From: a virus
IMG/VR virus record: IMGVR_UViG_3300011115_000844
Location: 10,102-74,101 of that record
Strand: one strand, 5' to 3'
DNA length: 64,000 nucleotides
Under the pieces are notes generated by a model that did no database searches, had not been told where the DNA came from, and saw only the letters and a list, made by a program, of their open reading frames with translations. A program made the position numbers and the translations under genes. Below are positions 4,370 through 34,661 of the stretch, piece after piece. Position 1 is the stretch's first letter; every line of letters begins with the position of its first letter.

Positions 4370-4400
4370 AAAATGGTGGCTTAATTGCCACTTTTTTTTT
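4370..4400. terminator. bidirectional intrinsic terminator
   Basis: GTGGC-TTAATT-GCCAC hairpin flanked by A and T runs, between convergent genes. Confidence 0.75.
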
Positions 4401-5070
4401 AACTGTTCATTCCTACTAAATAAGAATTGTTTGCCGAAATGGTAAATGTTTCATTAAACGTAATAGCCGATGTTGTAGTATTATTATAAATGTACGTTGA
4501 AGTAGTTAAATTGTAAATGTATATGTTAGTACCCGTTGGTATTGCAGTTGTGCTACCTTGAAAAAGTATTGTATCACCTGCAACTACGGGTATGTTTCCA
4601 CTATCGGTATTAGGTGTGCCACCCGAATAAATAGTTACTGCATTTACATATATTTTTATAAGTGAAGCAACTCCACCATAATTAAACTGATAATTTAATG
4701 CAGTTGTTGATGCAGGATTAAATATTTGCAAAGTTGCAAATGCAACATTATTGTTGTAGTTATTTATGAATGTAGAACCTCCACTTGTTGTTATAAAGAA
4801 AAACCCAACATTTAAAGTATTTAAGGTATCGCAAATAGATTGAATTGTTGTTCCACTAAAAATTAATTGAGCAATTGTATATATTATTCCACTTGTTCTA
4901 TATTGAATTGAAATAGTGTTTTCGTTTGTAATCGTAAAACCCGTTAAATTCCATTGATATTTTGTTGTAGCATTGGTTGTGTCCATTGCATCAGCATTAT
5001 TACCTAATATGCTTATTGGTACTGTACCATTGGTATTATTGGTTATGTTAAACGATATAACTTCTTGCAT
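4399..5070 (-). CDS. beta-rich putative virion (vertex/spike) protein
   Basis: Thr/Asn/Ile-rich beta pattern; N-terminus resembles the first strands of the 262-aa capsid candidate. Confidence 0.55.
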   Translation of the reverse strand: MQEVISFNITNNTNGTVPISILGNNADAMDTTNATTKYQWNLTGFTITNENTISIQYRTSGIIYTIAQLIFSGTTIQSICDTLNTLNVGFFFITTSGGSTFINNYNNNVAFATLQIFNPASTTALNYQFNYGGVASLIKIYVNAVTIYSGGTPNTDSGNIPVVAGDTILFQGSTTAIPTGTNIYIYNLTTSTYIYNNTTTSAITFNETFTISANNSYLVGMNS

Positions 5071-5079
5071 AAATTAAAA

Positions 5080-5550
5080 TTAAAGAATATCAACGTATTG
5101 GTCAAAATAATTAGTATCGTTCATGTTCCTTTCTACTGAAACAAAATTATTGATGCCTTGTAAATCAAGTGCATCAGTAGTAGCTATCCTATCGCAATAA
5201 AGTCGGATTAGTAAGTTTGAATTGGGTAACATATTAAAACGTACATAATCTCTACCATCTATAACTATATTTTTTTCTTTTGTATCAATAAATATGGAAG
5301 GTTGAAACTGATAAGGACTGATAGCACTTATTACTGATTGCAAATTTTGATTACCACTACTATCATATTTAGAGTAATTAAACAACCCTTTAATTTGATT
5401 TAGTATTGAAGAAAATAAGTAAACAAAAAACACATTATAAACAAATTGACCTAAACTATTCTTGAATTGAGTATAGGTAGTATTTCCTTGTACGGTAATA
5501 CTAATTGCAGGGGTTGTATTTGTAGTAACAGTAACACCAAATGAAGCCAT
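5080..5550 (-). CDS. paralogue of the putative capsid protein (minor capsid/penton candidate)
   Basis: Aligns with 26950..27738: TYxQF, DxxGNQ, IxPYQxQ, IDG, LPN. Confidence 0.65.
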   Translation of the reverse strand: MASFGVTVTTNTTPAISITVQGNTTYTQFKNSLGQFVYNVFFVYLFSSILNQIKGLFNYSKYDSSGNQNLQSVISAISPYQFQPSIFIDTKEKNIVIDGRDYVRFNMLPNSNLLIRLYCDRIATTDALDLQGINNFVSVERNMNDTNYFDQYVDIL

Positions 5551-6158
5551 TATTTAAACTTTTTTTTATAATACCAATAACCCAATGCAGTTGACCCTAA
5601 AACTAAAATTGCTAAAAATGTGTAATTAATTTTTTTTTTATTGCTTTGATAAAATTCAATAACATTTATCAATAATAATCTTGCATTTAATCCTAAAGCA
5701 TATTTATCTGCTTCTTTTTGACCTTCGGGAGTGCTTATTTCGTGAACCCCAAAATAGTTTCTTGTTTTTAGTTTATTGGCAAATTCTTGGGCATCTTTAA
5801 CATCCCTTAATTCATTAAACCCAATACCATTTCTTGTTTTTTTATATAGTCTTTGTATTACGTCTTTTGCACTATCAATTGGATTATTATACTTTGCGTA
5901 ATAATCCCTATCAACGCAAGTACCCCCTTTTGAACAAGAATCAGACCTTTCATTTAATGGTGCGAGTGTTCCCCTTGTGGCGAGAGGTTGTTTATCTTGA
6001 CCTATAAACTTCATCCCATACATATTATTGTTGTTATTAAAGACATTAGAGCCATAGTTGGCACTTTCAAGTCTTGCTTGTGCAACAATAAGTTTTGAGG
6101 CAATTGGTGAGAAACCCTCTTGTATGGCTAAATTGTATATTTCTTGGTCTAAATTCAC
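5550..6158 (-). CDS. glucosaminidase (GH73-like) peptidoglycan hydrolase with C-terminal TM anchor
   Basis: AQARLES...NNMYGMK...YAKY motifs; C-terminal hydrophobic helix plus KKKFK. Confidence 0.8.
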   Translation of the reverse strand: MNLDQEIYNLAIQEGFSPIASKLIVAQARLESANYGSNVFNNNNNMYGMKFIGQDKQPLATRGTLAPLNERSDSCSKGGTCVDRDYYAKYNNPIDSAKDVIQRLYKKTRNGIGFNELRDVKDAQEFANKLKTRNYFGVHEISTPEGQKEADKYALGLNARLLLINVIEFYQSNKKKINYTFLAILVLGSTALGYWYYKKKFK

Positions 6159-6763
6159 TACTTAAATTTTAATGTTTTTTCAGTTTCATCAAAATACAAT
6201 CTGTTCAATTCATCTTGTGAAAAATTCCTACGGATATAACCTTTAAAAACTTTAGTGCTACCTGCACTTGCTTTACCCACAACCAATGTTCTTTTTAATT
6301 CTTCAACTCCTTGTCCTTCTCTAACACCTTTTAAATTTGTGTTTCCTTCTATCGTTAAAACATGAGTGTTATCAATTATTTCTTTTACTAAAGCGACATG
6401 ACCTTGCATACATATAATATCAGCAATTTGTGGCGTATTAGTATTTAAAAACACATATCTTTTATCGCCTCTTGCATTTAAATTAATTACATTCTCTAAA
6501 GTACCACTTGTACTGCCATTAAAATTTTTTGCTAAAAATTCTCTATCAAAAGAATAAAACTGCATATACACTAATTTGCAATAGTACATACACCATGCTT
6601 GACTACTTTTCCATCCAACTGCTTTCATCATGGCTTGAAAACTTGCATCTACAAAACCTACATTTTCTGAACCTTTTACTATTCTTTCCATTTGACCACG
6701 AAACCCTTTGCTTGTCAAAAATGGATTAAAAACTGATAATAACGGATTTGCAATATCGGGCAT
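6158..6763 (-). CDS. CHAP-domain amidase/endopeptidase
   Basis: AWC...GHVALV...TIEGNT catalytic motifs. Confidence 0.8.
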   Translation of the reverse strand: MPDIANPLLSVFNPFLTSKGFRGQMERIVKGSENVGFVDASFQAMMKAVGWKSSQAWCMYYCKLVYMQFYSFDREFLAKNFNGSTSGTLENVINLNARGDKRYVFLNTNTPQIADIICMQGHVALVKEIIDNTHVLTIEGNTNLKGVREGQGVEELKRTLVVGKASAGSTKVFKGYIRRNFSQDELNRLYFDETEKTLKFK

Positions 6764-6777
6764 AATCTTAAATTTTA

Positions 6778-6925: not shown

Positions 6926-7309
6926 TTAATTATTTACCATTATTTCTTTTCCTTCAAGGTCGCATACAACTAATTTGTTATCGCTTTTTCTTCTGTAAAC
7001 CTTACACTTAAATTCCTTAGCAAATTCACGATTCAATTCATCAAGAACACTTTGAGGTTCGCCATTGTTATACGCACTAATGTATGCCTTTAAACAAGCA
7101 AAACCATTTTTAACTTTTGGGTCTGTTCCCATATCCTTTGCAGTTAAAGTTGGTGCAGACATTGTTTTTCTGTCCTTTGGGTCTTCCTCTTTATCAGTTA
7201 CTTTAATATTTGTAGTAGCATTAGGTTTTTTCATCTTTGGTTTAAAGATGTAAAACAATAATATCCCACCTCCAAATACAAGCAATGCTTTCTTTTGTAA
7301 ATCTGTCAT
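6926..7309 (-). CDS. N-terminal TM protein
   Basis: Hydrophobic residues ~8-22 followed by a basic stretch. Confidence 0.7.
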   Translation of the reverse strand: MTDLQKKALLVFGGGILLFYIFKPKMKKPNATTNIKVTDKEEDPKDRKTMSAPTLTAKDMGTDPKVKNGFACLKAYISAYNNGEPQSVLDELNREFAKEFKCKVYRRKSDNKLVVCDLEGKEIMVNN

Positions 7310-7650
7310 TACGCTTTATTTTTTTTGTATAAATAAACACCAACTAATAATGCTATACCCACTATTGCATACACACTAATACGTTGCATATCTTTATTCT
7401 TTAACGCTTCTAATTCACTTCTTTTTGCTTGTTGTAAAACTAAATACGCATCATTTACATCAGATTGTGTTACCGCACCAAATTTATTAAGCAACAAATC
7501 TAATTTGTCTTGTAATAATTTTGCATTGTTTGTTAATTCAGCAAAAACCGTATTTGACAAACCACCTTGTTTAATTCTATCTTTTATATCCCCAAGTTTG
7601 CTTTTTAATTCATCAACAATACTAAGTTGATTATTTGTTGTTGTTTCCAT
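7309..7650 (-). CDS. coiled-coil protein with C-terminal TM anchor
   Basis: Likely start METTT; TM followed by KKNKA. Confidence 0.7.
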   Translation of the reverse strand: METTTNNQLSIVDELKSKLGDIKDRIKQGGLSNTVFAELTNNAKLLQDKLDLLLNKFGAVTQSDVNDAYLVLQQAKRSELEALKNKDMQRISVYAIVGIALLVGVYLYKKNKA

Positions 7651-7651
7651 G

Positions 7652-7996
7652 CTATTTTTTTGTAAGTAAGTAAAGTCCTGCCAATAAAACAATAGAACCA
7701 CCTAATATAACTATTGCAGTCGTTCTTTCCCTTTGTGTCTTTGCTAATTCCTTTGATTGAATTGATGCTACACTTTGTGCTGATTTTAAAGAGGTTACTG
7801 CATTGAATAATAATTCAAGTTTTCTGTTACTATCGTTAGTTCTTGCCAAAGAATTTTCTAACGCTTGTTTTTGTCTATTATCAAGTAGTGCATACGCTTG
7901 TTCAAACTCCCTACGTTTTTTCATGTCGGAAATCTTCGCAACAGTTTCAGCAACCTGCGTACCTACTTTTATTGCATCATCTACACCAAACGCCAT
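7652..7996 (-). CDS. helical protein with C-terminal TM anchor
   Basis: TM followed by KK. Confidence 0.7.
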   Translation of the reverse strand: MAFGVDDAIKVGTQVAETVAKISDMKKRREFEQAYALLDNRQKQALENSLARTNDSNRKLELLFNAVTSLKSAQSVASIQSKELAKTQRERTTAIVILGGSIVLLAGLYLLTKK

Positions 7997-8016
7997 AATA
8001 TTTCATTTTAAATTAT

Positions 8017-8499
8017 TTAAAGACCTATTGATGCAAGTGAATTTTGCATTGATAATGCACCAATCGTTTTTTGTATTGCTTTTTGTTTTATTACGTCAAT
8101 GTCTGCTTGACTACTTACTGATTTTTTACCTAAAACTTTAAATAATGCCGTTTCAGTTTCAGTACCAAAAAACTTATCAGCACCGAATTTAGGCAATGAT
8201 TTAGAATCAACTTTTAATAACAATTCTTGTAATTTTCCTACGCTATCATTTTTTTGACTTCTTCTAATTGGAAATACAAATTCTGTATAAGTTTCTTGTG
8301 TTGATGGCGTTGTAGTTGTACTTGTTGATGGCGTTGTAGTTGTACTTGTTGTACCTACATCTTTTTTCTTATCATCAACATTATTACTCCCTTGTGGCGT
8401 TCCTTTTGCTCTTAAACCTTTTATTACAAAGTAAATGGCAGTACCTACAAAAAGTAATGAAATTACCCCGATTGCTATTGTTCCTTTTTTGTTTGTCAT
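8017..8499 (-). CDS. TM-anchored peptidoglycan-binding domain protein
   Basis: N-terminal TM, Thr-rich linker, FPIRR...VGKLQELL...ADKFFGTETETAL (PG_binding_1-like). Confidence 0.7.
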   Translation of the reverse strand: MTNKKGTIAIGVISLLFVGTAIYFVIKGLRAKGTPQGSNNVDDKKKDVGTTSTTTTPSTSTTTTPSTQETYTEFVFPIRRSQKNDSVGKLQELLLKVDSKSLPKFGADKFFGTETETALFKVLGKKSVSSQADIDVIKQKAIQKTIGALSMQNSLASIGL

Positions 8500-8529
8500 T
8501 TTTTAAATTTTACTTTAAGTTGTTATATT

Positions 8530-9255
8530 TTATTTTAATTCAAACCCATTAGGAGAAAAATAAAGTGACCTTTTCGGCTTCATATTTTCAAAATACAATC
8601 TTATATTACCTTCGGGACTTACAAATGTTTTAGTATAACCTTTTGTACTTAGTTTTGTACCATTATGATAAATATATGTTTTTGGAGTTAATACTCTTCC
8701 ATCAGTTGTATATTCTTCATAAATTACATTTGAATCTGCTAATCCATAAAAATCAAGGTTATTATTTAAACTTAAAGCATCAAGTAATTTATTTGATAAA
8801 ATAATTGCATTATCGTATGTTGTTTTTAGAAATGCTTGGTTTTCAGCAGTTGTTTTCTTTTCGTTTGCTTTCTTAATTATTGCGTCAATATCATCTTGTG
8901 AATCAGCAGTTGTTTTACCTAAAATGCTTTGTAATGCGTCTGACGTAATTTTACCAAAGTCACCATCATCACGATATTTTCCTAATAATGTGTCATCATA
9001 TAGCAATATTGCTCTTTGCAATTCTTTTACTTTACCACCTTTACTACCTTTTTTTAATGGGAATAGTTTTGCTACACTTGGGGTTACGCCACCACTACTA
9101 TTTGTTTCTACTTGACTATTTTGCTTTGGGTCATAATTGGGAGGTGCATCTTGACCTTTTCGCTTTGAATTTTTAACTGCTTTGTAAACAAAGTAAAGTC
9201 CTATTAAAGCAGGTACTCCAAAAATTACATACGGTAAAATCTTATTGTTTTTCAT
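8530..9255 (-). CDS. TM-anchored peptidoglycan-binding domain protein, paralogue of 8017..8499
   Basis: FPLKKGSKGGKVKELQRAI...DGDFGKITSDAL; start moved to MKNNK. Confidence 0.75.
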   Translation of the reverse strand: MKNNKILPYVIFGVPALIGLYFVYKAVKNSKRKGQDAPPNYDPKQNSQVETNSSGGVTPSVAKLFPLKKGSKGGKVKELQRAILLYDDTLLGKYRDDGDFGKITSDALQSILGKTTADSQDDIDAIIKKANEKKTTAENQAFLKTTYDNAIILSNKLLDALSLNNNLDFYGLADSNVIYEEYTTDGRVLTPKTYIYHNGTKLSTKGYTKTFVSPEGNIRLYFENMKPKRSLYFSPNGFELK

Positions 9256-9259
9256 TTTT

Positions 9260-9553
9260 TTATTTTTTAAATAAATACATAACGTATTGAATAATAAAAG
9301 ACCAACCAATTCCTATAATGGTTAGTCCTCCTAATATTTTGCTTTTAACCAACTTATCATTATCAACGTATGCCTTAATATCATTTAACTCATTTACTAA
9401 CCCTTTCTGACCATAAACGGGATTTCCAATAACAGTTTGATTTAATTGCGTCAATGTTTTATCCATTTCACGCAACATACCATCCATGTCATTCTGCTTA
9501 TTAATCATCTGCGATAGCATTGACTTAATACTCTCTACGTTATTCTCTTCCAT
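9260..9553 (-). CDS. coiled-coil plus C-terminal TM protein (holin/XhlA-like candidate)
   Basis: Heptad pattern, GQKGLV motif, single TM. Confidence 0.5.
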   Translation of the reverse strand: MEENNVESIKSMLSQMINKQNDMDGMLREMDKTLTQLNQTVIGNPVYGQKGLVNELNDIKAYVDNDKLVKSKILGGLTIIGIGWSFIIQYVMYLFKK

Positions 9554-9786
9554 ACTCTTTCATGTATAAAATATAAAATTGGTTTCAATATTAAATCGGA
9601 AAATCCAAGTGTTGTAGCAATACTCATATTTCCCGTTGTAATATATCCTATTCCAAAAGTAACACAAGTTCCTAATATTCGATACGTTACGGTCTTTAAA
9701 ATAGATGTTGTAATTGAATTATTTAATTTTTTATGCAACGAATTATCAATGGTATTGTCAACAATATTATAAAATTCCTTAGCCAT
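9535..9786 (-). CDS. DUF2061-like small membrane protein
   Basis: SILKTVTYRILG...YFIHERVW signature. Confidence 0.8.
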   Translation of the reverse strand: MAKEFYNIVDNTIDNSLHKKLNNSITTSILKTVTYRILGTCVTFGIGYITTGNMSIATTLGFSDLILKPILYFIHERVWKRIT

Positions 9787-9795
9787 AATTTAAGT

Positions 9796-10197
9796 TTAAA
9801 GTTTTTTTTCTAATCTCATTTCTTCTCTAATCTTAGTAGCACTTATTTCAGAAATTTCTGTTGGAGGTATGTGTTCAACTATATCGTACCCTACACCCCT
9901 GCCAAAATCAACCGAACATATATCGGGGCAAATAAAAACTTTAACCCTATTTTCTTTAATCAATTCAGCGTATTCATCCATTATGTTATTCATAACCTCT
10001 AACGGAGAAAATGGGTTTTTAAAATCGGGTTGTACTTCTCTAATGCCTATACAAACATTACCCCCTTCATCTAAAACATTTTGAAACATTTGTTTGTGTG
10101 CTAAATGTAGGGGTTGCCATCTGCCAATAAACAAACTAAACTGATTTTTATTTTTATCCATTGAACTTCTAACGTGAATCTTTTTACTCCAACTCAT
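9796..10197 (-). CDS. HIGH-superfamily nucleotidyltransferase
   Basis: FIGRWQPLHLAH and ISATKIR motifs. Confidence 0.8.
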   Translation of the reverse strand: MSWSKKIHVRSSMDKNKNQFSLFIGRWQPLHLAHKQMFQNVLDEGGNVCIGIREVQPDFKNPFSPLEVMNNIMDEYAELIKENRVKVFICPDICSVDFGRGVGYDIVEHIPPTEISEISATKIREEMRLEKKL

Positions 10198-10642
10198 AAT
10201 CTTTTTTTTGGTTTATATATTTCTTAATTTCGTGTAAACATTCATCAATACTATTTTCAGATGTATCAATTTTCAAGCAATCTGTCTTCGGCACTTCAAA
10301 ATCAATGGCAAAGTAGTTATTTCTACCCCTATCCACTTGACTATCGTAATGCAAGTATATCTCAATTAGGTTTGAGTTATTCCTCAAATATGACCTTAAC
10401 TCTTCATAAGGAGTTACAAAACTCATTAAAGGTACAAATCCACCACGTTCAAGGTAAATAGCCATATCAAATGCGTTCTTTAAATTACGCATTCTACCTT
10501 CTTTGCTATAATCTTTGTTTTTGGTTATATCACGCCAAACATCGCCATCTATTCTAACACAATTGTGGCTAAAAAATGGCACAAGTTTATCAGCTAATGT
10601 TGTCTTACCACTTGCAGGTTGACCGTACAAAAGTATTATCAT
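10184..10642 (-). CDS. cysC: adenylylsulfate (APS) kinase-like protein
   Basis: GQPASGKTTLA P-loop, IDGDVWR, YSKEGRMRN, SFVTPY, FEVP. Confidence 0.8.
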   Translation of the reverse strand: MIILLYGQPASGKTTLADKLVPFFSHNCVRIDGDVWRDITKNKDYSKEGRMRNLKNAFDMAIYLERGGFVPLMSFVTPYEELRSYLRNNSNLIEIYLHYDSQVDRGRNNYFAIDFEVPKTDCLKIDTSENSIDECLHEIKKYINQKKDYELE

Positions 10643-10887
10643 GTTATAATTGCTTTTTTATTATCCTCAAATGAAATGTTTTTTGCATTGCATGAAATGT
10701 GATATTTCTCTACATCTCTACCATCGTATGTTTTTATGATATCTTTTGAAGTAAAGCATGAGCAATTTATATCTATTTCATCAACAAGAAATTCTAATCC
10801 ATTTACTAATAACCTCCATTTAAAATCGCTTTTTATTGGATAATCAGTATTGAACCTAATTTTTACTTCAAGTAAATTATTTTCCAT
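10639..10887 (-). CDS. hypothetical protein
   Basis: ORF translationally coupled to cysC. Confidence 0.6.
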   Translation of the reverse strand: MENNLLEVKIRFNTDYPIKSDFKWRLLVNGLEFLVDEIDINCSCFTSKDIIKTYDGRDVEKYHISCNAKNISFEDNKKAIIT

Positions 10888-10893
10888 AATTAC

Positions 10894-11724
10894 TTATTTT
10901 CTGTAATTAAACTTGTTGTAATACCACTTGTAGTTTTCGTATAACCAATTAGTAATATCGCTACCCATAACTGCATCAGCATCAGACGGTTTTAATTCTA
11001 ATTTTGGTCTTATGGTATGTAAATCTTTTGTCAAACCATACACGCTATCATCTTCGGTAGTTATTTGTTGTATGTTGTCAAAATCATGCTCAAAATGTGG
11101 CACTTCCAAGTATTCGTATATCCTTATCATTGTGTTTTCGGGATATAAGCAAAGGTCTTCTGCTTTTACAAATAATATCTTATCATCGTAACCAAGACGT
11201 ATCATTTCGAATATCCTTTCAACTGCTCTTCCTATTGTGTTGTTAGGGTTCATCCATTCATCAACTCTTTTATGAACAGTAGTACCCCTTGCTTCACTAT
11301 CATTTCGTATTGGGTCTGCAATTAATTGATTTTTTCTGTAAATCTTTTCATACGAAGCAATTACATCTTTAAGATTACGTACCATGCAAATAATCTTTGG
11401 GTTAGGGTAAAATTCATTCAAAAATGAACGATAAACACCCCAACCCCTACTTTTTATCATTAAGTAAGGTTTGTTTGTCAATGCACTTGCATAACCCATG
11501 ATACCATTATAACAAAATGATTTGAATGCTTTAGCCATTAATTCGCCATCTTGTGCTTTAAATTCGGGAGAATTTGTAAAGTTACCCCTTGCACCAAAAA
11601 CCAATTCTAATAACCCATCTGTCGGTGTAACATGAAAATCGGGATTTTGTCCTAATATATTTTGAAGTGCAGTTGATAGTGAACGTGGTAAACTGCTTTG
11701 AAAAAACAATTTTTGATTAGTCAT
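10894..11724 (-). CDS. PAPS-dependent sulfotransferase family protein
   Basis: SLPRSLSTAL 5'-PSB loop, KSRGW, KIICMVRNLKDVIAS 3'-PB motif, AEDL. Confidence 0.85.
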   Translation of the reverse strand: MTNQKLFFQSSLPRSLSTALQNILGQNPDFHVTPTDGLLELVFGARGNFTNSPEFKAQDGELMAKAFKSFCYNGIMGYASALTNKPYLMIKSRGWGVYRSFLNEFYPNPKIICMVRNLKDVIASYEKIYRKNQLIADPIRNDSEARGTTVHKRVDEWMNPNNTIGRAVERIFEMIRLGYDDKILFVKAEDLCLYPENTMIRIYEYLEVPHFEHDFDNIQQITTEDDSVYGLTKDLHTIRPKLELKPSDADAVMGSDITNWLYENYKWYYNKFNYRK

Positions 11725-12409
11725 TTTTATTTGTTTTTAATAGTTTAAATTTCATTTTTTTACATTTTATATCTTTTATTATTGATTGCCTTACATTTTG
11801 ATATGTTGTTTTATATTTTTCTGCTACATCTGTATAAGAATCAAAAATCTCATTTGTATCAATACATATTACTTTAACTCCAATCGTTTTCTTTTTTGCA
11901 TCGGAAATTTTTTTTTTATGTTCAATACTTTTTGGTTTAATTAAATATTCTCTTAAAATTTCTTTATTTTTTTGTGTCATTTTATGTCCTTTAAGACCAT
12001 TTGATATTTTTTCACAAAAAGACAAAGGCATTTTTTTACCCTTGTTAACATTTGGTTTACCTTTAAATATTTTGCTTAGATGTATTTTCCTATCTTCACT
12101 CAAAGGTTTACCTCTTGTTGGGTTTTCTATAATATCACTATAATTCAACATGATATTACCTAATGATTTTAAATAATCATACCAATATTGTTCTCTTTCT
12201 ATGATTATTCTTATTTCACATTCTTCTAAAATTGAAAATTCTAAACTATCAATACCGTACTTATTGTGTATGTTTTGTAATATAGGAGTATGTCTATTAT
12301 TTCTTAATTTACTTTTATGTGAGTTCCATCTTTGACATATATTGTTACTACTACCAACGTATTTTTTATTATTTTCTTTACAAGTAATAAGATATATACC
12401 ACAAGCCAT
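11717..12409 (-). CDS. GIY-YIG homing endonuclease with NUMOD3-like repeats
   Basis: GIYLI...YVGSS...RW..H...E; SxEHKKKIS-type repeats. Confidence 0.9.
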   Translation of the reverse strand: MACGIYLITCKENNKKYVGSSNNICQRWNSHKSKLRNNRHTPILQNIHNKYGIDSLEFSILEECEIRIIIEREQYWYDYLKSLGNIMLNYSDIIENPTRGKPLSEDRKIHLSKIFKGKPNVNKGKKMPLSFCEKISNGLKGHKMTQKNKEILREYLIKPKSIEHKKKISDAKKKTIGVKVICIDTNEIFDSYTDVAEKYKTTYQNVRQSIIKDIKCKKMKFKLLKTNKND

Positions 12410-12436
12410 TTTAATCGTTTTATTTTATAAAATAAA

Positions 12437-13312
12437 TTATTTTTCTAAAGATGCAATAATATCATCTACGTTAAATATGTCCTCTACTGAATTATAAGGA
12501 AATTCAATTGGGTCACCAATGATATTAAACTTTGATAAATAACTGTTTCTTAATTCGGGTTGCTTTGTAAATGGATTGGCAAGAATGTTATCGTGCATTT
12601 CGTACCCTAATACTTTTGGATTGTTGGTTATCCAACAAACAGTTGAAGGTAAATTTAATGAAGCACAAGTATGTTGTAAGAAACTATCTATTAATAATCT
12701 TTTCTCTGATAGCAAGGTTAATGCTACTATTTCTCTGAAATTTGCGTTAATAGGTGTAGTGCCTTCATAACCCATTTGGTCTTCCTTTCTGATGTGTACA
12801 ATGTTATATTTCTCATGGAAATGATTAATAACCTTTACAACTACATTAGAAGGTAAATCACGAGCAAAACCATATTTTAATTCGGGTGTTGCACCTCCGT
12901 TGGTTTGCATTAAAAATATCGGCTTATCTGATTTGTATTTGTTTTGGAAAAAGTCCAATTCTCTTTGTGTTAAAAACAATTCGGGCATTTCACCATTGTA
13001 ATCAATGTCAAACATTTTGCACCAAATTTCAATTAAATGCTTTTTTTCTTGCACATAGTCCATTTCAAGATATGGATTGTGAAGCATTAATTTTACTTCC
13101 TTATTTTCAATATTATCGGTAAAAAAATAACTAATATTCCCATGCTGAAACGATTTGTTTACATAAGGATTGTTAAGGTAAACTTCGGGATAACCACTAA
13201 TAACAATTAGGTTATCTTTTGGATATTTTGTTTTGATTGCTTTACAAACGGCAGTAGATAAAATACATTTACCTATACCTCCATCAATTTGAAAAATAAT
13301 GTTTTTTGACAT
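12437..13312 (-). CDS. GT9 (heptosyltransferase-like) glycosyltransferase
   Basis: GGIGKCILST...IKTKYP...LNNPYV; IDSFLQH.CA.L. Confidence 0.75.
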   Translation of the reverse strand: MSKNIIFQIDGGIGKCILSTAVCKAIKTKYPKDNLIVISGYPEVYLNNPYVNKSFQHGNISYFFTDNIENKEVKLMLHNPYLEMDYVQEKKHLIEIWCKMFDIDYNGEMPELFLTQRELDFFQNKYKSDKPIFLMQTNGGATPELKYGFARDLPSNVVVKVINHFHEKYNIVHIRKEDQMGYEGTTPINANFREIVALTLLSEKRLLIDSFLQHTCASLNLPSTVCWITNNPKVLGYEMHDNILANPFTKQPELRNSYLSKFNIIGDPIEFPYNSVEDIFNVDDIIASLEK

Positions 13313-15534: not shown

Positions 15535-15536
15535 AA

Positions 15537-15851: not shown

Positions 15852-15860
15852 TTTTTTATT

Positions 15861-16766: not shown

Positions 16767-16768
16767 TA

Positions 16769-22414: not shown

Positions 22415-22425
22415 AGTTGTAAATT

Positions 22426-22989: not shown

Positions 22990-23010
22990 GATGTTTTATT
23001 TTTATTATGC

Positions 23011-24584: not shown

Positions 24585-24610
24585 GCTATAAAAATAATTA
24601 TATTTTTTAA

Positions 24611-24778: not shown

Positions 24779-24781
24779 AAC

Positions 24782-25009
24782 TTAACTATTTTTTGGACTG
24801 ATTAATTTAAAAATAAAGCCACCTGCTAAAGCACCTATTAAACCACCACCTATTAAACTCATTTGCCTTGAATGTGCTATGTATAAACCCAAAAATAAAC
24901 CTATTGCACTACCCGTCAAAGCACCTTCGCTTTGTTCAAGTAAAACCTTATTTCCACTTTTACTTTTATTCGATTTTATCTTATCAAGCATATCACTTCC
25001 GTAACTCAT
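24782..25009 (-). CDS. two-TM glycine-zipper protein
   Basis: GxxxG-rich hydrophobic helices. Confidence 0.65.
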   Translation of the reverse strand: MSYGSDMLDKIKSNKSKSGNKVLLEQSEGALTGSAIGLFLGLYIAHSRQMSLIGGGLIGALAGGFIFKLISPKNS

Positions 25010-25012
25010 AAA

Positions 25013-25414
25013 TTATTTTTTTCTAAAATAAAAAAATGCACCAACAACTAAAGCACCAACTATTATTAATTTAGTAGTTTTGCTCATGCCACTCGGTGTT
25101 GGTGGTGGAGTTGGGTTATTAGCTTCATCTAATTTTTTTGCTTCTGCTTCTAAATCTTTTTGTTCAAGTTCGGCTTTGGTTTGCTCGTTTTTTGCTTTTT
25201 GTTTATCGGCTTTGGCTTGTTCGTATTCAGCAGTTGCTTTCTCTACTTCACTTTGCGATTTGGCTTGTTCTAATTTAATTTTAGCCATTTTCATGTCATA
25301 CTCTGCTTGTGCCTCTGCTTGTTTCTTTTTAACATATTCTCTTGACCTTGTAACCCCCGACCATGTAGTTAAATTAGAATAAGAATAGTCATTTACAAAT
25401 GTTTTGTTTTCCAT
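25013..25414 (-). CDS. coiled-coil protein with C-terminal TM anchor
   Basis: E/K/A/Q-rich heptads, Pro linker, TM followed by RKK. Confidence 0.7.
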   Translation of the reverse strand: MENKTFVNDYSYSNLTTWSGVTRSREYVKKKQAEAQAEYDMKMAKIKLEQAKSQSEVEKATAEYEQAKADKQKAKNEQTKAELEQKDLEAEAKKLDEANNPTPPPTPSGMSKTTKLIIVGALVVGAFFYFRKK

Positions 25415-25418
25415 TTTT

Positions 25419-25655
25419 TTATTTTTTTTTCTTTAATAATACATAAGCAAGAATACCAACTACTAAAACGCCACCACCAATTAAAACGGGCATTAACCAC
25501 TTTTTTTTCTTAGGTTGTTCAGCAGGTGCATTAACATCATTTGACGTTGTAGCACCCGTTGTATCACCCGTAGGTTGCTCTAAACTTAATTTAGGGTTTA
25601 TACTACTTTGTCTTTGTGCTTCTTTTTGAATATTACCTATAAGACCTCTTGCCAT
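25419..25655 (-). CDS. C-terminally anchored membrane protein
   Basis: Likely start MARGL; tail nearly identical to that of the upstream gene. Confidence 0.7.
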   Translation of the reverse strand: MARGLIGNIQKEAQRQSSINPKLSLEQPTGDTTGATTSNDVNAPAEQPKKKKWLMPVLIGGGVLVVGILAYVLLKKKK

Positions 25656-25660
25656 AACAA

Positions 25661-26470
25661 TTATTTTTTCTTTTTCATCACGAAATAAATGATAGTACCT
25701 AATACCAATATACCACCACCAATTGCAACGGGCATAACCCATTTTTTCTTTTCTTTATCATCAGTAGGAGTAACTTGTGGCAATTTGCCTTGTGCTTCTA
25801 AAACCTTCGCTTGTGCTAAAGCACTATCAGTTTTTGCTTTTTCAAAATCAATAGCTTGTTGATTAGTACCTTTTTGTGCGTTAGCATTTAATCTTGTAGA
25901 AAGATAACCCATACCAACATTTAAGTAATTTTGGATGTTTTCTTGCGAAAATAAAGTAGATAAAACTTCACCTGCTTTTGTTTTTTCTTTACCCGTTCCA
26001 TTTGCAAAGTTTGAATTTAAACTTTCAATTTTAGAAAGTTTATTTCTTTTTAAATTTGGAATTGAACTTTGTGCAATTCTAATTAATGAACCATCTCTTT
26101 GATTTCTTGGCTTTGGTAATCCATCACCCGTAACTTCAGCAACTATATAATCTTGCAAATTTTGTCTAAATTTAGGACTATCTTGAATCGCTTTAAAAGT
26201 AGCATCAATAATAGATTTTTTTGAAGACAAAGGGGTTACAAATGAACCTTGTCTTTGCAACATTCTTACCAATGCAGGTTTGTCAGTTTCCGATATAACT
26301 GCAACTGCACTATTTATTGCAAATTGTGGGTCGGTAAACACCTCTTGTGTTTCAAAACTTGTTCTTTGACCTAAATTAAGTGTGTCACCACCATTTTGTA
26401 CTTGACTTGCTTTTTTTTGGTTAAGATAACCACTTGTTATTGCGTTTAAATTACCTTTACTAAACATCAT
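25661..26470 (-). CDS. C-terminally anchored membrane protein
   Basis: SNFANG motif; KKKWVMPVAIGGG-TM-KKKK tail. Confidence 0.7.
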   Translation of the reverse strand: MMFSKGNLNAITSGYLNQKKASQVQNGGDTLNLGQRTSFETQEVFTDPQFAINSAVAVISETDKPALVRMLQRQGSFVTPLSSKKSIIDATFKAIQDSPKFRQNLQDYIVAEVTGDGLPKPRNQRDGSLIRIAQSSIPNLKRNKLSKIESLNSNFANGTGKEKTKAGEVLSTLFSQENIQNYLNVGMGYLSTRLNANAQKGTNQQAIDFEKAKTDSALAQAKVLEAQGKLPQVTPTDDKEKKKWVMPVAIGGGILVLGTIIYFVMKKKK

Positions 26471-26483
26471 AATTTTTGTGTTT

Positions 26484-26876
26484 TTATTTTTTAACAATGA
26501 TTGCACTTGCTAATAATAAAGCAGATGCTATTATAATAATACCTATTTCTTTTGAAGAATTTTTGTTTTGGTTTTCGTTGCCAACAAAATTCATGTATTG
26601 CATATCATGATTACTTTTACAACCACAACCATTTGCATTACTAAAATTAGCTTCTTTTTTATTTTCAGAACTGTACTTCTCTATTAAAACATTTTTGTCG
26701 GGATGGCTATCCAAAACATCATTAAAAGCATTTTCGCCTTCATAAGCAACTACTTTTTTTAAGCAAATACCTAAATCGCCTTCATCTTTTACATTTTTAG
26801 CTGAATATCCGTATTTATGGATAATTGCTTTTGCTTGATAAGGGTTGCATGATGCAACGTAAGTGTATATATCCAT
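26484..26876 (-). CDS. C-terminally anchored membrane protein
   Basis: FSNANG and YMNFVG motifs, TM followed by KK. Confidence 0.7.
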   Translation of the reverse strand: MDIYTYVASCNPYQAKAIIHKYGYSAKNVKDEGDLGICLKKVVAYEGENAFNDVLDSHPDKNVLIEKYSSENKKEANFSNANGCGCKSNHDMQYMNFVGNENQNKNSSKEIGIIIIASALLLASAIIVKK

Positions 26877-26949: not shown

Positions 26950-27738
26950 TTAACCTAAACGTGCCTTAACGGTATCGCCTCCGATTACTGCTACTGAACT
27001 CTTAACCACTTGTGGGTTAGTGAATTGACGTGAAGCAGAACGACCTGCAAGACCACGAGCAATGTTGATGTTATCAGCAGGGTAGAATTGGAATTGTACT
27101 ACTGCATTTGGTAACAAAGTAGAGATAGTTAATTTAGTGTAACCATCAATTCTGTACAATTGCTTAACTGCAACAACTGTTGTTTGTTGTTGATATGGGT
27201 CAATTGTGATTACCAACGTCTTTAATGCTTGATTACCATTAGCATCTTGTGTGTTCAAGGTGATAGGTTGAGTAATTTGAGCAGAAGAACCTCCCAAAGA
27301 TTGAATGTAAGTTAAACCTACACTAAATGGACTGTTCATTGATTGATACAAAAATTGTTGGTAAGTAACGTTACTGATACCACTTGATACAGTTACTTGA
27401 ATAGCCGTTCCCGTTGCTACTAAACTACCATTACTATATGTAGTTGTTGTAACGGGAGTTGAAGGCATTGAAGCGTTGTTGATATACTGATACGCACCTA
27501 ATACGTCAAAGTTAGAAATACTTGTATTAGAAGCATTTGAAACTGTAATGATGTAAGGTTGTGAAGTTGGTGCAGATTGCATTTGAGGTTGAGCCATTGG
27601 CATTCCACCATCAGCATTGAAGAAATCATCTCCACCCGTAAAGTACATTGAATCATCATCAATGAAACCATCTGCATTTAAGTAATTTTCGTTTGCGAAG
27701 TTTCTCGCATTTTCCATGTATTGTCTAATGTATGACAT
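26950..27738 (-). CDS. putative major capsid protein (jelly-roll-like, beta-rich)
   Basis: Downstream of the A32-like ATPase, own promoter and strong terminator, beta-rich core of about 160 aa, acidic N-terminal extension, paralogue at 5080. Fold is inferred, not demonstrated. Confidence 0.6.
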   Translation of the reverse strand: MSYIRQYMENARNFANENYLNADGFIDDDSMYFTGGDDFFNADGGMPMAQPQMQSAPTSQPYIITVSNASNTSISNFDVLGAYQYINNASMPSTPVTTTTYSNGSLVATGTAIQVTVSSGISNVTYQQFLYQSMNSPFSVGLTYIQSLGGSSAQITQPITLNTQDANGNQALKTLVITIDPYQQQTTVVAVKQLYRIDGYTKLTISTLLPNAVVQFQFYPADNINIARGLAGRSASRQFTNPQVVKSSVAVIGGDTVKARLG

Positions 27739-27772: not shown

Positions 27773-27889
27773 TTATTTTGTTGGAGCAGATACTTTTGCT
27801 TTGTTCATTTGCTCTTTAACTTTTAATGCTACAAGAACTCCTGCCGTTACAATTAGTAATTGAACTCCGATTGCTTTCCAATTTCCCAT
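27773..27889 (-). CDS. 38-aa membrane protein upstream of the capsid candidate (not in ORF track)
   Basis: MGNWKAIGVQLLIVTAGVLVALKVKEQMNKAKVSAPTK. Confidence 0.7.
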   Translation of the reverse strand: MGNWKAIGVQLLIVTAGVLVALKVKEQMNKAKVSAPTK

Positions 27890-28956: not shown

Positions 28957-29175
28957 TTATAGTTTACCTACAAATTTATATCCGTTTAATTCAAGTTGTT
29001 TTGTAAATTTCAACATTTGCCCTTTATCGTATGCGTTATAATCTTTCATAACATAGTCCTTTACTGAATAATCATAAAACTGATACCAAACGGTGTAACC
29101 ACCACTTGCATTATCATATACGGTATATTTTTTCAAATTATTTCTTTTTTGGTCTTCCTCTTTTACCACTACCAA
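28957..29175 (-). CDS. hypothetical protein
   Basis: Small ORF in operon; start uncertain. Confidence 0.45.
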   Translation of the reverse strand: MVVVKEEDQKRNNLKKYTVYDNASGGYTVWYQFYDYSVKDYVMKDYNAYDKGQMLKFTKQLELNGYKFVGKL

Positions 29176-30112
29176 TAGGTTTATTTGTACCTTCTGAAAT
29201 GATAGTTAATTTATTACTTGGTTCGGTAGGTTGCTCTGCAACAAACTCTTCTTGATATATTGGTTCATCAACGATTGCACCCGACATTGAATTTACAAAA
29301 TCATTCACGTTAGTATCGGGATTAAATGGTTTGCTATACGTTTGTTGTGGTGGAGGTGGAGGTGCTTGATATGTTGGTTGTGGTTGTGGTATTGGTTGTG
29401 GTGCAACATTCTGCATCTTGGTAACTTGTACTGCTTCTTTTAAAGTTTTTAAGATTTCTTTTTTTACGTTGTAACCTTGATTAAACATAAACGCACTTAC
29501 CAATACTTCTTTACCTGCTAAATACCAAAGTAATTGTTCATCGGTCATGCCGATACCCTTCTTTTCAAGAACACGAACAAGAACGGGTTTAAATTCAGTT
29601 TCAAACTCTTCTGTAACTACTAATGTACCTTTTGTTTGTTCATTGTAATCATCAATAAATTCACCTGCCGTCATAGATAGAGTTGGAGAAACTTGAATTT
29701 CAACATTCAAATCTATTTCCCCCTTCTCCTGCATTTTATTCAATTGCTTTTGATTGAATAAAAGTTGCGTATCTGCCCAACCCTTACCAAACTTGTATGT
29801 GGACATAATCATGTCTGCTACCTTTTCAGAAGCATCGTGTTTATCCTTTTTTGGCAAACTATCCATTTTAGGATTGAATGGTTGTTCTTGTGGCTTTTTT
29901 ACTTTCTCTTCCGAACTCATTTGCCCTCCCATTGGTGGTGGAATAAATGAAGGTTCGGGAATATCATTTGCAAAATCTTTAGCATCAACTTTTACATTGT
30001 GCTTGGTATATTCTTTTTCTAAAACGGGTTCACCCAATGGGTCAAAATCATCAAATACAAATTCATCGTTGATTTCTTTTTCTTCGGGTTCTTGAAATTC
30101 TTTATTACTCAT
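29138..30112 (-). CDS. hypothetical protein with C-terminal AT-hook-like KRGRPKKK
   Basis: 324-aa ORF upstream of the ATPase. Confidence 0.7.
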   Translation of the reverse strand: MSNKEFQEPEEKEINDEFVFDDFDPLGEPVLEKEYTKHNVKVDAKDFANDIPEPSFIPPPMGGQMSSEEKVKKPQEQPFNPKMDSLPKKDKHDASEKVADMIMSTYKFGKGWADTQLLFNQKQLNKMQEKGEIDLNVEIQVSPTLSMTAGEFIDDYNEQTKGTLVVTEEFETEFKPVLVRVLEKKGIGMTDEQLLWYLAGKEVLVSAFMFNQGYNVKKEILKTLKEAVQVTKMQNVAPQPIPQPQPTYQAPPPPPQQTYSKPFNPDTNVNDFVNSMSGAIVDEPIYQEEFVAEQPTEPSNKLTIISEGTNKPIGSGKRGRPKKK

Positions 30113-31685: not shown

Positions 31686-32333
31686 TTATAGTTTATACTT
31701 TTCTTTGAACTCCTTATTTTTCAAAACCTTGTCAGCACAAAATATACCTACATCAATATCGCTTTGATAATGCAGTCCTAAGTAAACCCTTGAATAGCAT
31801 ATATCTTTAAAAACGTCTTGCATAAATGAATACGTCTTAGGATATATGTTACCTATAACTTCTGTAAGTAATCTTGTTTGAAATGCGTGTCCACTTGGGA
31901 ACGAAGGAGAATCAGCACTTATACTTTTGAATGGAAATAATTTTAGTTTGTAGTAATGTGCAAGTTGATATGGTCTTGGTCTTTGAAATGTGAATTTCAA
32001 TTTTGTTAGCAACGGCTTTGTATCTTCGATAATATCGGTAATTATCTTTTTTACTTCTTCTTCATTTTCGCCTCCTTTAATTAAACCATCAGTAAAATAC
32101 CTTGACAAATGTTTATCATAAACCATGTATCTGTTTATGTAGTCCTCTTTACCTTTTAAAGTATTGATGTACGATACTATTTCGTTTAACTCCTCTTGCG
32201 TTGCTTCCGATGAATTTTTTGGAAATGTATATGTAGATAATTCTTCTAATAATACATCAAGGTAGTTATTAGTAGAAATGTATTTTAATTGTTCAAGATT
32301 GGGGTTGCCATAGCTTATTTCATCTATATTCAT
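31686..32333 (-). CDS. PAP2/vanadium-haloperoxidase superfamily phosphatase
   Basis: KxxxxRPRP, SFPSGH, SRVYLGLHYQSD. Confidence 0.85.
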   Translation of the reverse strand: MNIDEISYGNPNLEQLKYISTNNYLDVLLEELSTYTFPKNSSEATQEELNEIVSYINTLKGKEDYINRYMVYDKHLSRYFTDGLIKGGENEEEVKKIITDIIEDTKPLLTKLKFTFQRPRPYQLAHYYKLKLFPFKSISADSPSFPSGHAFQTRLLTEVIGNIYPKTYSFMQDVFKDICYSRVYLGLHYQSDIDVGIFCADKVLKNKEFKEKYKL

Positions 32334-32362
32334 AGCAGTTAATTAATCGTTCTTATTTTTTA

Positions 32363-33854: not shown

Positions 33855-33858
33855 TTTA

Positions 33859-33987
33859 TTAAATTTTACCTTCTTTTTTTAATTCTTTGGTAGCACGAGA
33901 AATAGCATCAGACCATTTTTCAGTACCTTTCTTGTAAATTTTTTTTGCCCTTGCTGATATAAGGGTAATTTTACTTCCTTTTGCCAT
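33859..33987 (-). CDS. 42-aa basic protein, possible DNA-binding core protein (not in ORF track)
   Basis: MAKGSKITLISARAKKIYKKGTEKWSDAISRATKELKKEGKI. Confidence 0.6.
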   Translation of the reverse strand: MAKGSKITLISARAKKIYKKGTEKWSDAISRATKELKKEGKI

Positions 33988-33989
33988 AA

Positions 33990-34103
33990 TTATGATTTTT
34001 GACTTGAATGCCATGCTTTACCAATAACCCATACTGTACCAAATAATACTGCAAGTGATACTGCAATTCCTAAAGCACCTCCTATTAAATTTTTCTTTTC
34101 CAT
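33990..34103 (-). CDS. 37-aa TM protein (not in ORF track)
   Basis: MEKKNLIGGALGIAVSLAVLFGTVWVIGKAWHSSQKS. Confidence 0.65.
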   Translation of the reverse strand: MEKKNLIGGALGIAVSLAVLFGTVWVIGKAWHSSQKS

Positions 34104-34172
34104 TTTTTTATGTTTTATATTTAAAAAATTTGTAGTAAAGATAAAAAATAATTGCAATAATCATTACATTAA

Positions 34173-34661
34173 TTATTCTCTATTTTTCAAAATATTAACG
34201 CCTATCAAACCTCCAATAACTATACCAACAATCCACAATGCTATATTGGTTTTTTTAGGTTTTTCTTCTTGTGTTACATTACCTGCAACATTCTGCACGT
34301 TTGGTTGTGCATTTGGTTGTGGTGTAGGTTTTGCAACATTCGGTTGTTGTTGTGCATCTTTTTTAGGTCTTCCTCTGCCAACTAAGTTTTTAGAAAGATT
34401 AGCATAATGTTCTTTGTTTTTATCGAACATTGTTACTGCTTTAACTAAAACCCTATCTTGTTCTTCTAACGCATCGTTTAACTCTTCTAAATCAGTTTTC
34501 AATTCATCTACATCATCATTCAATGTAGGGTTTTCAATTGATTTTTCAAGTTCTCCAATACCATCAACAATCGTGTAATAATCTTTAATTTTGTTTCTGA
34601 TTCCTTGTGATACAGTTTCTTCTGTTAATCCAAAACCGTCAAGTGTTTGTTTCCATTTCAT
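34173..34661 (-). CDS. coiled-coil protein with AT-hook-like GRGRPKK and C-terminal TM
   Basis: Motifs visible in the translation; TAAATTTG -7 element at 34687..34694. Confidence 0.75.
   Translation of the reverse strand: MKWKQTLDGFGLTEETVSQGIRNKIKDYYTIVDGIGELEKSIENPTLNDDVDELKTDLEELNDALEEQDRVLVKAVTMFDKNKEHYANLSKNLVGRGRPKKDAQQQPNVAKPTPQPNAQPNVQNVAGNVTQEEKPKKTNIALWIVGIVIGGLIGVNILKNRE

Follow-up and report, generated by a model that had tools for sequence, protein, structure and literature searches.

Gene content of a 74-kb freshwater virus genome suggests a large tailless, internal-membrane lineage infecting Bacteroidota

Results

A 74-kb genome with inverted terminal repeats

The record examined here (74,101 bp) comes from an uncultured freshwater bacterial virus, and most of it lies within the window, the 64,000-nt stretch that was analyzed. 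Coordinates below refer to the window, and the main genes located by coordinates are on the minus strand. The ends of the record form an exact 653-bp inverted terminal repeat (ITR), identified by reverse-complement comparison; the right copy occupies 63348..64000 (no strand assigned), and the left copy lies inside the 10.1 kb preceding the window. IMG/VR assigns the record to its ITR class, and CheckV rates it 57% complete. The genome is collinear with nearly the entire length of a 102-kb relative that is rated complete, the longest contigs among its close relatives reach 72 kb, and at ~74 kb it appears to be, and probably is, full-length. Four relatives carry inverted repeats of only 123-127 bp, which are unrelated in sequence and are probably assembler artifacts, so the ITR is described here as a feature of this record rather than of the lineage. 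Fifteen relatives, of 60-102 kb, are rated at least 90% complete. Atlas virus clusters holding one of the lineage's core proteins are labeled mostly Uroviricota.

The source run is labeled a viral metagenome. A near-identical strain is present in a drinking-water metagenome, and the genome recurs across drinking-water and river metagenomes. A Shine-Dalgarno core was found for only 4 of 92 genes, leaders are A-rich, and TAnnTTTG motifs lie upstream of operon heads. These translation-start and promoter signals point to a Bacteroidota host, as had been proposed in an earlier reading made from the DNA letters alone (the sequence-only reading).

A block dense in small membrane proteins

Within 4399-34800, hydropathy analysis identified 18 ORFs of at least 60 aa with one membrane segment, plus four tiny ones. 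Counting a multi-pass PAP2 protein and two ORFs with weaker anchors at the C terminus (5550-6158 and 32928-33854) brings the total to 22-25, close to the approximately 25 previously estimated. Most are tail-anchored, and ORFs with one membrane segment make up ~45% of the block versus ~10% elsewhere (4 of ~40). They include a cluster of five genes at 7309..9553, additional small genes at 21788..23265, and a run of tail-anchored single-pass proteins at 24291..26876, directly downstream of the capsid candidate described below; one gene of the cluster (8530-9309) and one of the run (26484-26876) are retained in the relatives G002 and G006. The PAP2-family lipid phosphatase (31686..32333; Pfam PF01569, E = 3.3e-9) has 37-44% identity to its counterparts in the same two relatives.

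Other genes of the block are consistent with roles in assembly, host attachment, and lysis. A conserved 260-aa protein (23258..24040) with an HEYSH motif is a candidate HExxH maturation metalloprotease; it retains 40-54% identity in G002 and G006, has no Pfam, PHROG, or PDB sequence match, and yields weak language-model leads to metallopeptidases, with nothing stronger. An acidic, Pro/Gln-rich 324-aa protein with a basic tail (29138..30112), encoded just upstream of the ATPase described below, keeps its position in these relatives at 31-34% identity and may be an assembly or genome-associated protein. A trio of fibre genes, encoding proteins of 718, 301, and 1262 aa, occupies 13378..20557 together with an intervening 104-aa ORF. 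These genes were recognized from S74 chaperone and PHROG matches and from the N-termini of their products: all three share the peptide MADFG..GFFGGE, and the 1262-aa product matches the Peptidase_S74 chaperone and tail-fibre PHROGs. Two ORFs at 5550..6763 encode probable peptidoglycan hydrolases for lysis; the Glucosaminidase and CHAP matches found among block ORFs were assigned to these two from their sequences.

A sulfation and glycosylation cassette (9535..13312; APS_kinase, Sulfotransfer_1/3, CTP_transf_like, and GIY-YIG matches) has orthologs in G006. Accessory metabolism includes APS kinase, sulfotransferases, a cytidylyltransferase, glycosyltransferases, and an epimerase, and both it and the fibres had been noted in the sequence-only reading. 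Beyond the block, 34781..49591 encodes polyvalent proteins of 946, 321, and 1229 aa (ART-PolyVal, GNAT, DUF5661, and DUF2958 matches) with repeated [FYL]A[DN]GG motifs; 9 ADGG occurrences were counted, against an expectation of 0.25. The same interval holds an HNH endonuclease gene, four family-less ORFs, and an AAA_5 ATPase bearing an intein. The record also encodes several endolysins, homing endonucleases, and RecT and replication-initiator proteins of phage type.

A B204-like packaging ATPase candidate

[quoted passage not shown] It is a small, single-domain protein with an N-terminal Walker A motif (GKRGVGKS, residues 12-19) and a Walker B motif with an acidic pair (LLLVED), both invariant across its family. 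In a Foldseek search with the AF2 model (pLDDT 88.4), ranks 1-11 were all B204 (best E = 3.5e-7), and the closest structure is the STIV2 packaging NTPase B204 (VIA Z = 17.3, rmsd 2.6 Å, 187 of 204 residues). DndH-C (Z = 16.4), HerA (15.4), VirB4 (15.3), TrwB (12.7), and FtsK (10.4) rank lower; B204 leads by a small margin, with DndH, HerA, and VirB4 trailing by about 1-2 Z units and DndH-C by about 1.

Profile searches gave a mixed picture. Compared with the PDB, the broader family profile also ranks B204 first, weakly (E = 0.002-0.004), through the post-Walker-B region outside the P-loop. Family members have weak DUF87, AAA_10, Zot, and TrwB matches, reaching E = 1.6e-5 for DUF87 (HerA) in distant members. 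No significant match to Pfam Pox_A32 was found for the candidate or its family, and an hhalign alignment to PRD1 P9 is confined to the P-loop. The A32/FtsK-HerA-type assignment made earlier is supported, with B204 as the top match by structure and, weakly, by profile (E = 0.002).

A family of single jelly-roll proteins

Downstream of the ATPase gene, separated from it by a 38-aa single-pass membrane ORF (27773..27889; hydropathy 2.19) in a position like that of PRD1 P20, lies the major capsid protein candidate (26950..27738, 262 aa). Its AF2 model (pLDDT 84.7) has a helix at the N terminus, a linker (residues 20-55) that is disordered and carries two A[DN]G(G) motifs, and one beta-sandwich of ~170 aa, that is, a single rather than a double jelly roll. 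Fold matches are generic (Z = 4.2-5.8, under the usual noise level of 7-8) and include the jelly rolls of STIV, FLiP, PM2 P1, and PR772 chain O, with equal scores for carbohydrate-binding modules (CBMs), tailed-phage cement proteins, and TNF/C1q-like domains. The beta-rich capsid candidate of the sequence-only reading is thus confirmed as a jelly roll, but as a single one that is only generically capsid-like, with a best Z of 5.8. That reading had held that a non-jelly-roll fold together with an ATPase grouping among conjugation ATPases would argue against it; the candidate folds as a jelly roll.

The jelly-roll family comprises 475 clusters at 50% identity and is among the most widespread protein families of the lineage. 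In relatives for which coordinates were worked out, the gene lies 0.3-3.1 kb downstream of the ATPase gene, and all 28 large relatives pair it with exactly one ATPase homolog. A second, smaller paralog (5080..5550, 156 aa; family HMM E = 3e-13), with orthologs in relatives G001 and G006, is possibly a vertex or minor capsid protein. Genomes of the lineage carry the domain in two to five genes (five in a 102-kb relative), and one relative, unlike the genome examined here, has a tandem-duplicated paralog, which is not an ortholog of the ATPase-adjacent gene. Receptor-binding and decoration domains are likewise multiplied within genomes.

Tailed-phage hallmarks were not detected

Pfam and PHROG searches covering almost every ORF in the 74-kb record revealed no terminase, portal, HK97 capsid, tail tube, or tape measure; outside the block (55 ORFs), the matches listed cover 25 of 44 PHROG families and all 16 Pfam families. 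Six-frame searches of the record for tailed-phage hallmarks were likewise negative, and none of four hallmark families (two terminase, portal, and HK97 capsid) was found in the 15 relatives at least 90% complete. These results bear out, and extend to the whole record and to its relatives, the earlier claim that such genes are missing from the block. They are profile-based, and a divergent terminase, portal, or HK97 capsid could escape the HMMs; structure prediction covered two proteins, the ATPase and the 262-aa jelly-roll candidate. PHROG matches annotated as terminase at 41885-44356 cover the intein region of the AAA_5 ATPase and were rejected. In the same searches, no polymerase or terminal protein was detected in the record, and no double jelly-roll (DJR) capsid family is among the matches listed.

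Discussion

A proposed model of a tailless virion

The best explanation for this genome is a lytic-looking virus with linear dsDNA of ~74 kb and a Bacteroidota host, in which the block at 4399-34661 is the virion-building region. We consider it probable that the virus is tailless, contains an internal membrane, and belongs to an undescribed lineage. From gene content, and by analogy with PRD1 and STIV, we infer its particle shape, lipid layer, processing step at A[DN]GG sites, replication mode, and formal placement in Varidnaviria. The particle would have an icosahedral shell built from jelly-roll proteins, in which the 262-aa candidate is the predicted major component and the 156-aa paralog may sit at the vertices. 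A membrane vesicle inside the shell would be studded with the ~22-25 small, mostly tail-anchored proteins. The B204/P9-like ATPase would dock at one vertex through small membrane proteins and would pump the linear genome into the preformed particle. The three fibre types, sharing their N-terminal anchor peptide, would decorate the vertices. A[DN]GG sites in capsid precursors and in packaged polyvalent proteins are probably cut, perhaps by the HExxH protein.

The jelly-roll protein is the sole shell candidate identified. Its fold is equally near lectin-, CBM-, and TNF-like domains, it recurs in two to five genes per genome, including the tandem-duplicated form, and membrane proteins are very numerous; each of these features would also suit a new, non-icosahedral, membrane-rich virus (e.g., enveloped or pleomorphic) with a HerA-type ATPase, in which the jelly roll is a spike, adhesin, or decoration domain. 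We regard such a virus as unlikely. The jelly-roll gene lies just downstream of a packaging-type ATPase in the relatives checked, with one ATPase homolog in each of 28 large relatives, and the family is very widespread (475 clusters). The N-terminal helix and processed-looking linker are typical of capsid precursors, and separate, dedicated fibre genes are present. From what is established for PRD1 and STIV, a motor of the B204 type is expected to fill a rigid particle assembled beforehand, which further counts against a non-icosahedral virion.

A highly divergent member of Caudoviricetes, with hallmark genes that escape HMMs and a B204-like ATPase serving DNA transport, replication, or defense, would accommodate the many ORFs without a family match, the S74-chaperone tail-fibre-like proteins typical of tailed phages, and the fact that only two proteins were folded. 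However, Pfam and PHROGs detect terminases very widely and found none in the record or in 15 near-complete relatives, no tape measure or tube was found, and tailed phages do not typically have a structural block so rich in membrane proteins. BLASTP shows that the non-membrane, family-less proteins conserved among G000, G002, and G006 have 127, 166, 260, 262, and 324 aa, sizes below those of a typical portal or terminase, whereas lineage-wide conservation does not extend to the larger family-less proteins (363, 432, and 520 aa). We therefore judge a tailed phage quite unlikely. A linear plasmid or other mobile element, its ATPase drawn from a DNA-transfer or defense system (VirB4, TraG, HerA, or DndH), is very improbable. 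The fold of the ATPase also matches VirB4, TrwB, HerA, and DndH well (Z = 12.7-16.4), polyvalent proteins occur on conjugative elements too, and linear plasmids can have terminal inverted repeats; but no relaxase, type IV secretion, or partition family is among the Pfam and PHROG matches listed, and the enzyme, at 282 aa, is as small as the minimal single-domain ATPases that package viral genomes, rather than 500-900 aa long. The viral-metagenome label of the source run also speaks against a plasmid, as do the several endolysins, the three fibres, the homing endonucleases, and the RecT and replication-initiator genes of phage type.

Returning to the tailless, internal-membrane virus, we tentatively offer a broader reading, which is possible but has somewhat less than an even chance of holding in full. 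The 60-102-kb freshwater Bacteroidota viruses may be a deep, unnamed group that ranks as an order or higher and belongs to Varidnaviria or stands next to it, with a large shell made from one single-jelly-roll family that has multiplied within genomes. The tandem copy in one relative would then be a natural intermediate between single and double jelly rolls, and virions would carry polyvalent effectors whose cleavage at GG-type sites would resemble that of adenoviruses and ASFV.

Nearly all known tailless membrane-lined bacterial viruses have small genomes. Prokaryotic DJR viruses span 7-18 kb (PMC5894146), sphaerolipoviruses have about 30 kb (PMC12643093), and SSIP-1 reaches 43.8 kb. The 10-35 kb that the sequence-only reading gave as usual is roughly right against these values. 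If our interpretation is true, these widespread freshwater viruses of 60-102 kb would demonstrate that the architecture can be enlarged in bacteria, much as eukaryotic giant viruses have enlarged it, and without tailed-phage machinery. Such a lineage would also bring to light an abundant, overlooked set of non-tailed Bacteroidota phages and provide a concrete system for learning how shells of very large size are assembled from single jelly-roll proteins, and how these proteins duplicate. With its apparently full-length sequence, defined ends, and recurrence in drinking-water and river metagenomes, the genome is a practical reference for isolation and virion proteomics.

Comparison with known tailless viruses

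Among known packaging enzymes, B204 of STIV and STIV2 (Turriviridae) resembles the ATPase most in its minimal single-domain size, its N-terminal P-loop, and the 92% of its length that aligns; identity is only 18%, and the enzyme described here has an extra C-terminal helical part (residues 227-282). The virus described here has a bacterial host, and its genome is 4 times larger than that of STIV (about 17 kb). SSIP-1 infects Salisaeta, of the Bacteroidota/Rhodothermota group. It is a tailless, membrane-containing phage of PRD1-type architecture with two capsid protein types (PMC6356626), and its circular genome is the largest among the cultured viruses of this kind compared; the genome here is 1.7 times larger, with relatives reaching 102 kb. 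No similarity to SSIP-1 was detectable with the ATPase and jelly-roll profiles or with any ORF of the genome.

Sphaerolipovirus-type viruses have two adjacent capsid genes, unlike the jelly-roll paralogs here, which lie 22 kb apart with one adjoining the ATPase gene, and the capsid proteins of P23-77 and SH1 are not among the top structural matches listed for the capsid candidate. The likeness to Sphaerolipoviridae, Simuloviridae, and Thermus phage P23-77 (Helvetiavirae) lies in the single jelly roll of the capsid protein, a candidate here, and in the place of its gene after that of a packaging ATPase. Helvetiavirae have an internal membrane, as is predicted here, and sphaerolipovirus genomes are linear with inverted repeats (PMC12643093, PMC12642351); Helvetiavirae genomes measure 16-30 kb versus 74 kb here. 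A single jelly roll in the ATPase-adjacent protein sets the genome apart from the prokaryotic Bamfordvirae (Tectiviridae, Corticoviridae, Autolykiviridae, and Turriviridae). PRD1 (Tectiviridae) differs further in its 14.9-kb genome, double jelly-roll P3, and terminal protein with protein-primed polymerase, and has no sequence similarity to the genome. PRD1 nevertheless shares with it a linear genome with ITRs, fibres (at the vertices in PRD1), and the local gene order, in which ATPase, tiny membrane ORF, jelly roll, and then membrane proteins follow one another as in P9-gpi-P20-P3-P22.

A viral packaging-type ATPase in the morphogenesis block

From an FtsK-HerA-type ATPase, a beta-rich capsid candidate, small transmembrane (TM) proteins and a lack of tailed-phage genes in one morphogenesis block (window positions 4399-34661), the sequence-only reading had proposed a large tailless phage of Bacteroidota with an internal membrane. 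Our analysis confirmed the underlying observation, and a tailless virus with an internal membrane is in our judgment the best reading of the record and a reasonably likely one.

The ATPase (28104-28952, minus strand; 282 aa) carries a Walker A motif (GKRGVGKS) at residue 12 and a Walker B motif (LLLVED), both invariant in 32 homologs. Searched alone, the protein matches no Pfam or PHROG family, and phmmer gave no significant match among PDB sequences. Its AlphaFold2 model (pLDDT 88.4) retrieved the packaging NTPase B204 of STIV2/STIV at Foldseek ranks 1-11 (best E 3.5e-7). A Foldseek-independent search aligned 187 of the 204 B204 residues with a Z score of 17.3 and an rmsd of 2.6 Å, followed by DndH-C (Z 16.4), HerA (15.4), VirB4 (15.3), TrwB (12.7), Zot (10.7) and FtsK (10.4). 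When the family was combined with a distant branch (25-29% identity) into a broader profile, B204 ranked first among all PDB sequences (E 0.002), through a match that sits after Walker B, outside the P-loop. Members of the distant branch show weak Pfam matches to DUF87 (HerA), AAA_10, Zot and TrwB, and the hhalign alignment with PRD1 P9 is confined to the P-loop. We conclude that this protein belongs to the FtsK-HerA ATPases and represents their minimal viral packaging type, with a small lead over its cellular relatives. Many of its homologs are annotated by JGI as "ribosomal protein L30/L7E", a label that is probably an annotation error, since nothing else among our results backs it.

A jelly-roll capsid candidate and its paralogs

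The capsid candidate (26950-27738, minus strand; 262 aa) belongs to a family of 475 clusters at 50% identity. In its model (pLDDT 84.7), a helix at the N-terminus and a disordered linker precede a single beta-sandwich over residues 55-234. The beta-rich protein noted from sequence is thus modeled as a jelly roll, but its kinship to capsid jelly rolls proved generic. Coat proteins of nepoviruses and comoviruses are among the structural matches (Z 4.2-5.8), as are PR772 chain O, the N-domain of PM2 P1 and the capsid jelly rolls of FLiP, STIV, faustovirus and PBCV-1; carbohydrate-binding modules, tailed-phage cement proteins, nucleoplasmin and TNF/C1q domains score equally. Foldseek searches of PDB and BFVD returned weak, mixed jelly-roll matches and nothing stronger, the family profile had no significant match among PDB sequences, and the ESM Atlas offered no usable match. 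Two distant family members and P0241 found no match when used as IMG/VR queries. As modeled, the protein has a fold class that suits a capsid protein and is a single rather than a double jelly roll; a specific kinship is unsupported.

A second paralog lies at 5080-5550 (minus strand; 156 aa; family HMM E 3e-13). The domain occurs in five genes of a 102-kb relative (G006, IMGVR_UViG_3300002835_000070), four with a single domain and one a 406-aa tandem duplication. This tandem protein (17,225-18,415; L012:10001-11194), of 397-406 aa, contains two domain copies and is a possible natural intermediate between single and double jelly rolls.

Tailed-phage genes

Pfam and PHROG searches, which took in nearly every ORF in the record, detected no gene for a terminase, portal, HK97 capsid, tube, sheath or tape measure; outside the block (55 ORFs), the PHROG result covers the first 25 of 44 matched families. 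Six-frame searches with Terminase_6N, TerL_ATPase, Phage_capsid and Phage_portal found none in the record, nor in 15 relatives (59.7-102 kb) with a completeness rating of 90% or more. The absence reported in the sequence-only reading therefore holds, as an absence by profile only. The record's sole terminase-labeled matches, to "terminase large subunit" PHROGs, fall on an AAA_5 (MoxR/CobS-like) ATPase (41885-44356, minus strand) whose sequence is split by an intein containing a LAGLIDADG homing endonuclease. We rejected them, as they cover the intein; primase and DnaC family matches on the same gene do likewise, and the intein accounts for all three misleading assignments. The larger proteins without an assignment (363, 432 and 520 aa) are not conserved across the lineage, which makes them poor candidates for a portal or a capsid protein.

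Membrane proteins, conserved core and candidate processing

Hydropathy analysis of 4399-34800 identified one membrane segment in each of 18 ORFs with 60 aa or more and in 4 tiny ORFs, compared with just 4 of about 40 ORFs elsewhere. With weaker anchors and a PAP2 protein included, the region holds 22-25 membrane proteins, close to the roughly 25 small TM proteins counted initially.

In IMG/VR, the jelly-roll family is encoded at 69 loci, the largest contig being 102 kb. A single ATPase homolog is present in each of the 28 large records tested, and in all 8 records compared by coordinates the jelly-roll gene follows this homolog 0.3-3.1 kb downstream on the same strand. BLASTP against relatives with 46-48% ATPase identity defined a conserved core. 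It comprises the ATPase and a 324-aa protein encoded upstream of it, the PAP2 lipid phosphatase, a glycosyltransferase, the jelly roll, a 130-aa membrane protein, an HExxH protein, a LEA_2-like 166-aa protein, polyvalent proteins, a 127-aa protein (6926-7309) and a 259-aa membrane protein (8530-9309).

Three polyvalent proteins (34781-37621, 38198-39163 and 45902-49591, all minus strand) are strongly enriched in the motif [FYL]A[DN]GG, which lies between modules (ADGG: 9 observed versus 0.25 expected). Two A[DN]G(G) motifs, recurrent across the jelly-roll family, occur in the capsid candidate, within its N-terminal linker. The occurrence of the motif in both settings suggests proteolytic processing, and at the sequence level [FYL]A[DN]GG appears to be a GG-type protease site that these proteins share; sites of this type are found in adenovirus and African swine fever virus (ASFV). 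A putative protease for such cleavage is the highly conserved 260-aa HExxH protein encoded in the block, for which the ESM Atlas gave weak metallopeptidase leads and nothing stronger.

Fibers and sulfation genes

Three fiber proteins of 718, 301 and 1262 aa (13378-20557, minus strand), two of them extremely Cys-rich repeat proteins, begin with a common N-terminal peptide (MADFG..GFFGGE) that looks like a shared docking peptide. Downstream of the fiber genes is a sulfation cassette (9535-13312, minus strand) encoding APS kinase, two sulfotransferase-type proteins and a cytidylyltransferase-like protein; its ORFs also include a GIY-YIG homing endonuclease. The cassette is kept in the 102-kb relative.

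Genome extent and ends

The window, which spans bases 10,102-74,101 of one IMG/VR virus record of 74,101 bp, has a GC content of about 30% and no tRNA genes. Over 653 bp, one end of the record is the exact reverse complement of the other, and IMG/VR classes the record as having inverted terminal repeats. Genes are directed inward from both ends and meet near window position 4,380. Despite a CheckV completeness estimate of 57%, three findings suggest that the record spans the whole genome or nearly so: the repeat greatly exceeds the length of an assembler k-mer, the record is collinear with almost all of a 102-kb relative whose completeness rating is 100%, and the contigs of close relatives cluster just under 74 kb (maximum 72,033 bp). 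Inverted repeats flagged at the ends of four other relatives (G013, G015, G019 and G025; L104-L111) measure just 123-127 bp, have unrelated sequences and are probably k-mer-sized assembly artifacts. We therefore dropped them as support for the terminal repeat as a lineage trait.

The end of G019 is similar to a portion of a tRNA gene. The idea of a tiny PolB and a basic protein encoded at the left end gained no support from Pfam or PHROG. Within the morphogenesis block, a 361-aa protein with a DUF1064/Holliday-junction-resolvase-like domain (30577-31662, minus strand) could serve to resolve intermediates in the replication of a linear, terminally repeated genome.

Host and habitat

The genome encodes several peptidoglycan hydrolases, RecT and a phage replication initiator, which confirms a bacterial host. 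A Shine-Dalgarno core precedes just 4 of 92 genes, A occupies positions -13 to -10 in 61-74 of the 92, and TAnnTTTG motifs lie upstream of operon heads, including those of the ATPase and fiber genes. Scarce Shine-Dalgarno cores, A-rich leaders and TAnnTTTG are typical expression signals of Bacteroidota. The only match in a genome-collection scan with the ATPase (80% identical) is a 7,878-bp contig binned in a Chlamydiales MAG (JAJFUY010000328.1); it is most likely a mis-binned viral contig, and the bin was thus not used for the host call. The source run is labeled a viral metagenome. A drinking-water metagenome contains a near-identical strain over the whole stretch tested, and river and lake runs contain partial matches; no RNA run was among those listed as carrying the sequence.

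Comparison with known viruses

Our literature search found no paper describing this lineage. Neither megablast with 24.6 kb nor tblastn with the ATPase and jelly-roll protein matched any of 50,697 phage records, a set that may exclude entries close to the window, and six-frame searches of SSIP-1 and PRD1 with both profiles revealed no sequence similarity. Genomes of prokaryotic double jelly-roll viruses span 7-18 kb (PMC5894146) and those of sphaerolipoviruses are about 30 kb (PMC12643093); SSIP-1 has 43.8 kb, compared with 74,101 bp for this record. The local gene order equals that of PRD1: a 38-aa membrane ORF separates the ATPase and jelly-roll genes, and a run of tail-anchored membrane proteins follows downstream, as PRD1 has the P9 ATPase, gpi, P20, the P3 capsid protein, P22 and more small membrane proteins.
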